Shown: one piece after another, positions 11,984 to 13,135 of the stretch
Position numbering within the stretch: the first letter of the stretch is position 1
How the letters are laid out: each line of letters opens with the position of its first letter
Assembly (NCBI RefSeq): GCF_054482595.1
Contig: NZ_CM137008.1
DNA length: 64,000 bases
Strand: one strand, 5' to 3'
The notes under the pieces: generated by a model
The model's input: the letters and a program-made list of their open reading frames with translations, nothing else
Database searches by the model: none
What the model was told of the DNA's origin: nothing
Program-made: the position numbers and the translations under genes

Positions 11984-13135
11984 TCATTCCAGCCCGCATT
12001 GTTGGCGGTACATTTTGGGGCTGACTGCACCCGGCGATAATTTTATACGCCGCTCGTTATACCATCTGATGTAAGTATCCACTTGCTGCATGAACTTTTC
12101 TGGCGTGATGCCCGACCATTTACGCCCATGATACATTTCCGTTTTCAGTCTGCCGAAAAAGCCTTCGCATGCCGCATTATCAGGTGAACATCCTTTGCGG
12201 GACATTGAGCGAATAAGACCTTCTGCATTCACTCTTTCCAGCCAGCCTGACCAGCGATAATGCCCACCTCTGTCACTGTGTATCACCGGTCGTTCGCCAG
12301 CATTTAACGTTTCGACAGCGCTATCCAGCATAGTGTTGACCAGTTCAGCATCGGGGCGTGTACTGAGAGACCAGCTCACAACTTTTCCATCGAAGCAGTC
12401 CACCACCGATGATAGCCAGACTTTACCTGCAGGGAGGTGGAACTCCGTGATATCTGTCAGCCATTTCTGATTAGGTTGCTCCGCCTTAAAATCTCTGGCG
12501 ATAAGGTTATCCGGAGCCGGTCCGATTTCTCCGCAATATGAGCTGTAGCGGCGACGACGGTTACGGCTGACGACAAGCTGTTCTTCCACCATAAGTCTGC
12601 GTACAACCTTTTCTGATAGCCGCCCCCCCTCATGCCTGAGCATCGCATGCAGGCGACGATAGCCATAACACTGGTAATTACTGTTAAATATATCTGTCAG
12701 CATCGTACGTATCGTGGCGTATTTATCACCGGCTTTCAGTGCAGCCCGGTGATAAAAATAACTGCTACGGGCAAGGCCCAGAACATGCAGTAATTCTGTC
12801 AGGGGATATGTTTGTCTCTGGGCATCAGCGATCTTCGTTTTCTCTCTGTTGTTCAGGTGACTGATACTGATGCCCGGGTCTTTTTTTATGATTTCCTCCG
12901 CCTTTTTCAGAATATCCAGCTCCATCTGCCGGCGGCGTATTTCCTGATTCAGTCGGGCGACTTCCTCCCGCAACGCATCGCGTTCTGCCTCCAGGGAAGG
13001 TTCGTTATGTTTACGCATAGTCTGGTAAGCACTGTTGCCGATAATTTTATCTTTCCATTTATACAATACCGCACGACTGACACCAATACGCCTGGCGATT
13101 TCACTGGCTGATACTTGTCGTGTACAGAGTGCCAT
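11984..13135 (-). CDS. IS3-family transposase, OrfA and OrfB fused in one frame
   Basis: 383 aa; OrfA-like HTH/leucine zipper then DDE integrase domain; A7 tract (12881..12887) at the usual frameshift window but reading continues in frame; no start codon for the conserved upstream OrfA-like residues. Confidence 0.7.
   Translation of the reverse strand: MALCTRQVSASEIARRIGVSRAVLYKWKDKIIGNSAYQTMRKHNEPSLEAERDALREEVARLNQEIRRRQMELDILKKAEEIIKKDPGISISHLNNREKTKIADAQRQTYPLTELLHVLGLARSSYFYHRAALKAGDKYATIRTMLTDIFNSNYQCYGYRRLHAMLRHEGGRLSEKVVRRLMVEEQLVVSRNRRRRYSSYCGEIGPAPDNLIARDFKAEQPNQKWLTDITEFHLPAGKVWLSSVVDCFDGKVVSWSLSTRPDAELVNTMLDSAVETLNAGERPVIHSDRGGHYRWSGWLERVNAEGLIRSMSRKGCSPDNAACEGFFGRLKTEMYHGRKWSGITPEKFMQQVDTYIRWYNERRIKLSPGAVSPKMYRQQCGLE

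Follow-up and report, generated by a model that had tools for sequence, protein, structure and literature searches.

A single-frame clade of IS3-family transposases conserves a putative -1 frameshift cassette

The truncated transposase gene at the locus

Our analysis of a 64,000-nt stretch of DNA (contig NZ_CM137008.1 of RefSeq assembly GCF_054482595.1), here called the window, concerns the remnant of an IS3-family insertion sequence (IS) whose transposase is encoded in one continuous open reading frame (ORF) across a run of seven A residues (A7). The ORF occupies the minus-strand frame 11984..13135, comprises 383 aa counted from the first ATG and stays open through A7, which corresponds to T7 on the plus strand at window positions 12881-12887. 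On the minus strand, the nucleotide context of the run is GAGGAAATCAT AAAAAAA GACCCGGGC, the codon phase is GAG GAA ATC ATA AAA AAA GAC CCG GGC, and the protein reads EEIIKKDPGISISHL across the tract (the tract-spanning stretch is also given as KAEEIIKKDPGISISHL). An earlier sequence-only reading of the window had assigned the gene to the IS3 family and followed its frame across the tract into the DDE domain. Both statements were confirmed, the second by reading the ORF directly and the first by the NCBIfam profile transpos_IS3, which matched the ORF over the full profile (positions 1-369) with 382.5 bits against a cut-off of 160. Among Pfam domains, HTH_Tnp_1 lies 5' of the tract, and HTH_21, rve and rve_2 lie 3' of it; rve_3 was matched as well. 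The same reading had regarded the continuous frame as an anomaly, namely, either a natural, hyperactive fusion of orfA and orfB or a 1-nt change in the length of the homopolymer, and had described the 5' end of the gene as degenerate.

The degenerate 5' end was borne out and represents a truncation, since homology to intact copies of the element stops at position 13219, while the frame itself is free of stop codons upstream of the ATG to about position 13300. The first 337 bp of the element are missing, that is, the left inverted repeat (IRL), a 40-nt leader, the start codon and codons 1-99; a search of the window and of the flanks of locus L001 did not recover them. Consistently, blastn of the intact IS against the window found no further part of it besides IS positions 338-1604, which match 13219-11953, and the right inverted repeat (IRR) is the sole terminal repeat present in the window. 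No promoter-like site was found upstream of the relic. The truncation point is abutted by the end of an IS66-family element (GTAAGCG..., the sequence with which IS66-family ends begin), and this IS66-type end caused the 5' truncation. The catalytic DDE residues are retained in the window copy (WLTDITE, HSDRGG and ACEGFF); the corresponding D355, D415 and E451 are invariant in a 25-sequence protein alignment (A1). Judged by the invariant columns of the same alignment, five invariant or nearly invariant positions carry replacements, namely, L233Q, P370S, P423S, Y463H and L495P. Collectively, these data define the window copy as a dead, 5'-truncated relic of a 1604-bp IS3-family element. A megablast search against 5,426 complete Escherichia coli genomes showed that the locus and its flanks are conserved on the chromosome of about 930 of them.

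The single frame in intact copies and distant relatives

The length of the A run was then compared among reference copies of the same element. A 94-nt query built from the window flanks gave perfect matches in 246 records with A7, in one record with A6 and in none with A8 among the 5,426 E. coli genomes; the gene in the lone A6 record has an internal stop and is annotated as a pseudogene. A second query of 96 nt, shared by the two main E. coli lineages, placed 922 of 1102 records in the band of at least 99% identity. The first 32 of 40 evenly spaced rows were 100% identical at full length, equivalent to some 870 records or more, so that the identical A7 context is present in about 870-920 of the 1102 records. 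The A7 run is also present in loci L001, L002, L004, L005 and L089. Outside this set of genomes, a search of 5.8 billion proteins returned more than 100 clusters of single-ORF proteins of 508-515 aa that covered the full query at 56-98% identity. A scan of one genome per species gave 80 loci with an unbroken match to query residues 1-509, and the transposase is single-frame at all 80. The hosts of these loci belong to alpha-, beta- and gamma-proteobacteria, to Acidobacteria and to metagenome-assembled genomes (MAGs) of Firmicutes and Bacteroidetes, and include Enterobacterales, Burkholderiales, Pseudomonas, Rhizobiales, Granulicella, Acetobacterium and several MAGs.

Several copies that the NCBI Prokaryotic Genome Annotation Pipeline (PGAP) labels as 'programmed frameshift' were considered as candidates for a canonical A6 form of the element. 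This was rejected, since all of them are mutants: in L003:1204-2735, A9CC replaces A7GACCC; in L088:341-1872, a G is deleted at IS position 1291 in the DDE domain; and L090:915-2461 combines A6 with an internal stop.

Judged by these comparisons, the fused frame is the ordinary state of this element and not an anomaly of the window copy. Because the OrfA and OrfB parts normally form one continuous 510-aa frame in both the element and its clade, the A7 tract is not a lesion. The intact E. coli copies, the more than 100 protein clusters and the 80 distant loci are all single-frame, which disposes of the anomaly proposed in the sequence-only reading by the very outcome that this reading had named as its refutation: A7 is the standard length in reference copies, so a copy-specific indel or a sequencing error was rejected, and nothing points to hyperactivity of a form that is the norm. 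The idea of a natural fused variant survives for the clade as a whole, which does carry a fused form of the IS3 layout, and fails as a peculiarity of the window copy.

The boundaries of the intact element were defined by comparing the copy inserted in caiA of strain K99B with the empty site of K-12. The intact IS is 1604 bp long, has perfect 25-bp inverted repeats (GGGGATGCGGACGATTTCCTGGACT) and carries a single 510-aa ORF. Its termini, GGGGATG...CATCCCC, were set by the K-12 empty site (L087) against L005:1164-2767, with the TG/CA dinucleotides lying 5 bp internal, and relative to the empty site the caiA insertion is accompanied by a 3-bp TGC target duplication (one copy). Near-full-length copies were found in 858 E. 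coli records, other copies reach about 300 bp farther 5' than the window copy, and intact 1604-bp copies with one 510-aa ORF and A7 are represented by L005 and L089. As for a name, PGAP and PLSDB offer just 'IS3 family transposase'.

In K99B, 100% identical 1604-bp copies are present on a plasmid and in chromosomal caiA (NZ_CM135133.1 and NZ_JBSQGH010000002.1), a pair that points to recent transposition of the single-frame element. Members of the IS3 family transpose by a copy-out/paste-in route through a circular intermediate; for the present element, the identical K99B copies give only an indirect indication of activity. An intact copy also adjoins a truncated CoA-transferase gene in three RM strains. 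Because of the identical K99B copies and the intact copies in the three RM strains, the single-frame form appears to be mobile, with intact A7 copies capable of transposition.

Three further observations were made on copies of this element. A plasmid sub-lineage is 17-19 bp longer (1621-1623 bp) and includes L004:1204-2753, annotated as 'frameshifted'. Many plasmids of E. coli, Klebsiella and Salmonella contain only the first 84 bp of the IS at 95% identity, often within a 'hypothetical protein'; these matches may stem from a left end that stands alone or from the terminus of a related element. Finally, the 5' third of the E. coli element contains a stop-free frame of 188-201 codons in +1 relative to the transposase (L005:1166-1768). 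It was rejected as a real gene because it is not conserved in relatives, shrinking to 67 codons in Klebsiella indica and to fewer in others, and it probably arose by chance.

A slippery heptamer and a stem-loop conserved across the clade

Within the window, A7 runs are not in excess (23 observed versus 22.45 +/- 6.5 in shuffled sequences), and therefore the significance of this particular run derives solely from comparison with relatives. In the zero frame the run forms an A_AAA_AAA heptamer (ATA AAA AAA G). The motif nnA AAA AAA G was invariant in 75 distinct sequences from the 80 loci, always in the X_XXY_YYZ phase of a slippery site, and three further sequences carried the in-frame A_AAA_AAG variant with only six A residues (nnA AAA AAG G). 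The two lysines encoded by the heptamer, K211 and K212, are invariant residues in alignment A1. In a codon alignment of 53 full-length ORFs, K211 was encoded by AAA in 57 of 57 cases and K212 in 54 of 56; at K204 and K205, a lysine pair seven codons upstream, the AAG:AAA ratios were 36:8 and 47:7, respectively. Taken together, AAA occupied the two site codons in 103 of 105 cases (98%), compared with 34% for lysine across the ORFs, and the Leu, Ile or Val codon 210 ahead of the tract was NTA in 53 of 53 sequences, compared with 10% elsewhere. Codon entropy at conserved residues showed a single trough in the ORF, at codons 204-232, where it dropped to 0.35 from a mean of 0.775 (standard deviation, 0.092).

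The same region contains a conserved RNA structure. RNAalifold, applied to the 75 sequences, found de novo an 11-bp helix that pairs columns 25-35 with columns 73-83 of the nucleotide alignment (A2) and encloses a loop of about 37 nt. Five pairs of the stem core covary, and some of the compensatory changes alter amino acids. At pair 29/79, which links the first base of an Ile/Val codon with the synonymous third base of an Asp codon, we counted 35 AU, 29 GC and 11 GU combinations and no broken pair; at pair 34/74, the counts were 37 CG, 21 UA and 15 UG. On the sense strand, G-U pairs numbered 47 at 32/76, 15 at 34/74 and 11 at 29/79, and since the opposite strand would have C-A mismatches in place of these frequent pairs, we assign the structure to the sense RNA. 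In the specified structure 87% of cells were paired, versus 28-50% after the 3' partner was slid by 1-3 columns, and none of 500 shuffles came up to the values observed for pairing, covariation score and double changes. Single-sequence folds recovered the same stem in six sequences ranging from E. coli to Firmicutes MAGs (z scores of -3.2 to -5.9); the window copy itself folded with -19.8 kcal/mol (z score of -4.4). Two inner helices (columns 37-40/68-71 and 44-49/56-61) are not claimed, as several of their pairs were unpaired in 20-50% of cells. A scan of window positions 12700-13000 against the Rfam frameshift families (DnaX, IS1222_FSE and ALIL pseudoknot) gave no match even at an E value of up to 10, and the four matches that the Rfam scan of this interval did return were unrelated and far under their gathering scores. 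Collectively, our results demonstrate purifying selection on the synonymous sites of both the heptamer and the stem.

A Shine-Dalgarno-like GGAGG motif also precedes the heptamer, at the distance at which such stimulators act in dnaX and IS911. This motif is restricted to the Escherichia/Klebsiella lineage, in which it falls into the codons for A-E-E; the rest of the clade encodes N-E-L, mostly as AATGAACT. Since it is absent from most of the clade, GGAGG is not a clade feature. The positions of all these elements are listed in Table 1.

Table 1. Positions of the IS3-family remnant, the elements of the putative cassette and the adjoining IS66-family end in the window
Feature	Position	Strand	Basis
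IS3-family remnant, IS positions 338-1604	11953..13219	-	blastn of the intact IS (L005:1164-2767): 98.3% identity, gap-free
Right terminal inverted repeat (IRR), 25 bp, ...AGTCCAGGAAATCGTCCGCATCCCC	11953..11977	-	perfect inverted repeat of the L005 left end; matches IS 1-25 inverted
Transposase frame, codons 100-510 and stop	11984..13219	-	profile matches and alignment
Stem 3' arm, GCUGAUGCCC; includes the -1-frame UGA (12825-12827)	12820..12829	-	RNAalifold, pair counts, single-sequence folds
+1-frame UGA, 8 codons past the tract; stop for a transcript short of one A	12853..12855	-	reading frame
Stem 5' arm, GGGCAUCAGU	12866..12875	-	RNAalifold, pair counts, single-sequence folds
Spacer between heptamer and stem, 5 nt, GACCC	12876..12880	-	alignment A2, columns 20-24
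A_AAA_AAA heptamer, zero frame (ATA AAA AAA G), conserved in the clade	12881..12887	-	alignment of 80 loci
GGAGG, Shine-Dalgarno-like, 7 nt 5' of the heptamer	12895..12899	-	closest enterobacterial relatives only
IS66-family element end (GTAAGCG...), abuts the truncation point; tnpA fragment at 13305-13559	13220..13559	+	sequence; IS66 TnpA annotation at the equivalent locus; HTH_Tnp_1 match

The relic is surrounded by remains of other mobile elements. At the equivalent locus of the avian pathogenic E. coli (APEC) strain O2-211, PGAP labels the gene as 'IS3 family transposase, incomplete, missing N-terminus', flanked by an IS66-family element and an IS91 fragment and located beside a 3498-bp autotransporter gene. 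In the window, the region 13220-15919 constitutes a nested IS graveyard in which the IS66-type end and its tnpA fragment are cut by an ISL3-family transposase gene (13595-14872, minus strand; DDE_Tnp_ISL3, 227 bits); next comes a permease of the ArsP_1 type that carries a Cys/Ser-rich insert (14885-15919, minus strand). The IS91-family fragment lies on the opposite side of the IS3 relic, at about 11677-11922. Beside the IS relics stands the autotransporter ORF (window 7595-11092, minus strand; 1165 aa, 3498 bp), whose equivalent is annotated by PGAP as an autotransporter outer-membrane beta-barrel protein; its size and APEC hosts recall the AatA adhesin. Farther along the window, positions 19887-19934 show a weak 48-nt similarity (79%) to IS positions 1214-1261 in the DDE region, which suggests another rve-type transposase gene.

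Possible recoding and comparison with known systems

An in-phase X_XXY_YYZ heptamer, a 5-nt spacer, a covarying stem and lowered synonymous variation together have, as far as comparative analysis can tell, the make-up of a -1 frameshift cassette; the transposase, however, is encoded in frame 0. Beyond the tract, 54 of 67 loci have the -1 stop 18 codons on and none has it later than 23 codons, whereas the +1 frame is closed after 8 codons in 51 of the 67 and stays open for 91-95 codons in three. At the -1 stop, the Val codon ahead of an invariant Asp was GTT in 35 of 35 sequences, which creates U-GA in the -1 frame and places a G-U in the stem instead of a G-C pair; this choice of GTT is suggestive. 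We propose that, in intact copies, the heptamer and the stem would divert a fraction of ribosomes by a -1 slip, which would lead to the stop 18 codons later and give rise to the trans-frame peptide ...EEIIKK/RPGHQYQSPEQQRKNKDY. Because the alternative frames end soon after the tract, the product of slippage is likely a non-catalytic protein of about 230 aa. It would contain two helix-turn-helix (HTH) motifs and a leucine zipper, lack the catalytic domain and thus be equivalent to OrfA. The transposase would then be the default frame-0 product, and slippage would yield a short protein that regulates transposition, the role held by OrfA in two-ORF IS3 elements, by the same logic as in E. coli dnaX. 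For comparison, OrfA modulates transposition in IS911, IS3 and IS2 (PMC5009743), and -1 frameshifting at A_AAA_AAA in E. coli reached 0.4% with the heptamer alone, 0.8% with IS911 stimulators and 24.8% with the IS3 pseudoknot (PMC4066793 supplement). The window copy itself, which lacks the promoter, start codon and left end, cannot make use of the cassette. Slippage in intact copies, its ribosomal nature and a regulatory role of the short product are all inferred. Overall, we favor with moderate confidence the interpretation that the window holds an inactive IS150-like relic, that its clade is single-frame with a conserved cassette and that a -1 slip most likely produces a regulator in the manner of dnaX.

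Several points weigh against this interpretation. The close stops are weak evidence: by chance, a -1 stop follows within 23 codons at 61% of the codon positions of these ORFs, and the +1 stops are equalled at 33% of positions. The near stops were downgraded as evidence of selection for this reason. Base pairing in the stem could by itself account for the UGA that lies in its 3' arm. Locus L077 lacks the heptamer though its frame stays open. Because of the relatedness of the sequences, fewer independent events underlie the alignments than cell counts suggest; still, among single representatives of 12 clusters defined at 70% identity, AAA was found in 23 of 24 cases at the site versus 44% elsewhere. 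In addition, BLASTP pairs the KK of the IS150 frameshift site with K204-K205 and not with K211-K212, which makes site-for-site homology with IS150 ambiguous. Finally, slippage may be transcriptional, with the polymerase adding or dropping an A within A7 so that translation would stop 18 codons (A8) or 8 codons (A6) later, an explanation that we regard as unlikely but worth retaining. It has in its favor that both alternative frames stop shortly past the tract at most loci, that a transcript with A6 would restore the classical A_AAA_AAG message of orfA and orfB, and that Thermus dnaX offers a precedent with stops in both non-zero frames (PMC1088944); A7 is, moreover, the shortest run that supports RNA-polymerase slippage in IS1447 (PMC6211511). 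The known stimulators of transcriptional slippage, however, are upstream nascent-RNA hairpins, whereas the structure here lies downstream at the classical spacing of programmed ribosomal frameshifting. The three loci with A_AAA_AAG have only six A residues, and in three loci the +1 frame remains open well beyond the tract. Realignment of RNA polymerase usually requires a run of at least nine A/T residues, and the present run of seven lies at the lower limit reported (PMC6211511). Ribosomal slippage is therefore preferred, because the stimulator is downstream, the phase of the tract is fixed and three relatives shortened the run to A6 yet kept the heptamer.

The stem might also merely pause ribosomes and thereby give cis preference, the nascent N-terminal DNA-binding domain folding and binding to the IS ends during translation; the alternative product would then be irrelevant. 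Pausing has been tied to cis preference in IS911 (PMC5009743), and the stem is well conserved across the clade, but pausing explains neither the near-invariant A AAA AAA nor the rare NTA codon in GC-rich hosts that prefer AAG and CTG, and we consider it improbable. Still less probable is that heptamer and stem have no function and simply persist from a two-ORF ancestor. The architecture does match the IS150 cassette; a leftover, however, would decay at synonymous sites over 50% protein divergence, whereas this region forms the gene's only trough in synonymous variation and its stem carries compensatory changes. An equally poor candidate is an opposite-strand terminator, blocking read-through into the IS, or a DNA-level site formed by the inverted repeat and T7. 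On the plus strand T7 does come 5 nt after the stem, but this offset, the size of the loop (about 37 nt) and the C-A mismatches that antisense RNA would contain all speak against it; a terminator scan called none, and the antisense terminator was rejected on the grounds of that scan and the G-U pattern. The least credible of all is that the window copy is exceptional, through a 1-nt expansion, a sequencing error or a rare hyperactive fusion. The insertion of one A into the A6G motif of a classical IS3 layout, with orfB in the -1 frame, would give exactly such a fusion, and A6 was seen in one E. coli record, but the census of 246:1:0 with identical flanks, the exact A7 context of most of the 1102 records and the 80 single-frame distant loci all contradict it, as does the fact that the sole A6 record is a broken gene.

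The window itself is of little import, being a fixed IS relic in an island common to about 930 sequenced E. coli genomes. Should the favored interpretation, ribosomal -1 slippage to a regulator, be true, an IS3 frameshift signal would have been kept while its output was swapped, with the regulator made by slippage and the enzyme by default, which would bear on how transposition rates are set and on the evolution of recoding signals. The clade would also offer a natural setting in which to study frameshifting at A_AAA_AAA, with a simple covarying stimulator, in hosts that differ widely in GC content and tRNA-Lys sets, and the comparative result represents a plausible, testable variant of IS3 recoding. 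For annotation, it carries a warning: in this clade a single frame means an intact copy, and the 'programmed frameshift' label means a broken one. An E. coli-wide survey from 2014 reported 69 clusters with conserved heptamers, eight of them IS clusters (IS600, IS1, IS2, IS911, IS1397 and IS150) (PMC4066793). The present element is not among these 69 clusters, and the A_AAA_AAA_1 cluster of that survey is IS600. A survey of transcriptional slippage deliberately excluded cases with truncated products (PMC1088944). Full-text literature, including PMC5009743, PMC4066793, PMC6211511, PMC1088944, PMC3281130, PMC7371123 and PMC6350997, with ISfinder and TnPedia outside the search, described no single-frame IS3 member in which a frameshift cassette is retained, and the priority of this finding is uncertain. 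Only tentatively, and as a possibility we would not bet on, do we suggest that the clade has inverted the IS3 switch, with the in-frame transposase as default and an OrfA-type regulator made by -1 frameshifting, a system unrepresented in Rfam, the survey and the literature searched, and one that would lead annotation pipelines to attach 'programmed frameshift' to mutated copies.

The element shares with the IS3 family an HTH, a leucine zipper and a DD(35)E/rve transposase, an inverted repeat of 25 bp (20-40 bp in the family) and a 3-bp target duplication (3-5 bp), but has neither two ORFs with orfB in the -1 frame nor 5'-TG...CA-3' termini. Compared with IS150 of E. coli K-12, the only IS3 group examined in this respect, the element appears IS150-like: the IS150 frameshift product aligns with the single ORF at 36% identity over 466 aa (E value of 1e-83), and both have a DDE transposase, two N-terminal HTH regions, a zipper and a 3-bp target duplication. 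The IS150 cassette consists of CTA AAA AAG, a 6-nt spacer and a 10-bp stem with a large loop, as compared with NTA AAA AAA, 5 nt and an 11-bp stem here. In IS150, however, orfB lies in the -1 frame and the transposase is made solely via frameshifting, whereas here there is one frame; the protein is also about 55 aa longer N-terminally, the element measures 1604 versus 1443 bp and the termini are GG...CC versus TG...CA. The fusion may have arisen by the addition of one A to an A6G motif.

In its proposed logic, the system resembles E. coli dnaX, in which the long product (tau) is encoded in frame and an A-rich heptamer with a downstream stem-loop leads to a near stop and a shorter protein (gamma) (PMC1088944, PMC5009743). 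The likeness extends to an upstream Shine-Dalgarno-like element, here in the E. coli lineage only, and, for Thermus dnaX, to close stops in both non-zero frames (PMC1088944). On the other hand, dnaX is an unrelated gene without an Rfam DnaX match here, its heptamer is A_AAA_AAG and not A_AAA_AAA, and the short protein of the present element is a prediction. IS911, IS3 and IS2 belong to the same family and have an A-rich heptamer, a downstream structure and a non-catalytic OrfA-type protein that modulates transposition, but their polarity differs: OrfA is their default product and the transposase is rare, whereas the present element has the transposase as its default and would make the OrfA-like protein by shifting frame. 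Engineered OrfAB fusions of IS911, IS3 and IS2 have one base added in the A6G motif, which brings orfA and orfB into phase as in the present element. These fusions are laboratory constructs that overproduce the transposase, and their slippery codons are usually destroyed. Unlike them, the fused state described here is natural and ancient, and its slippery site has been kept.

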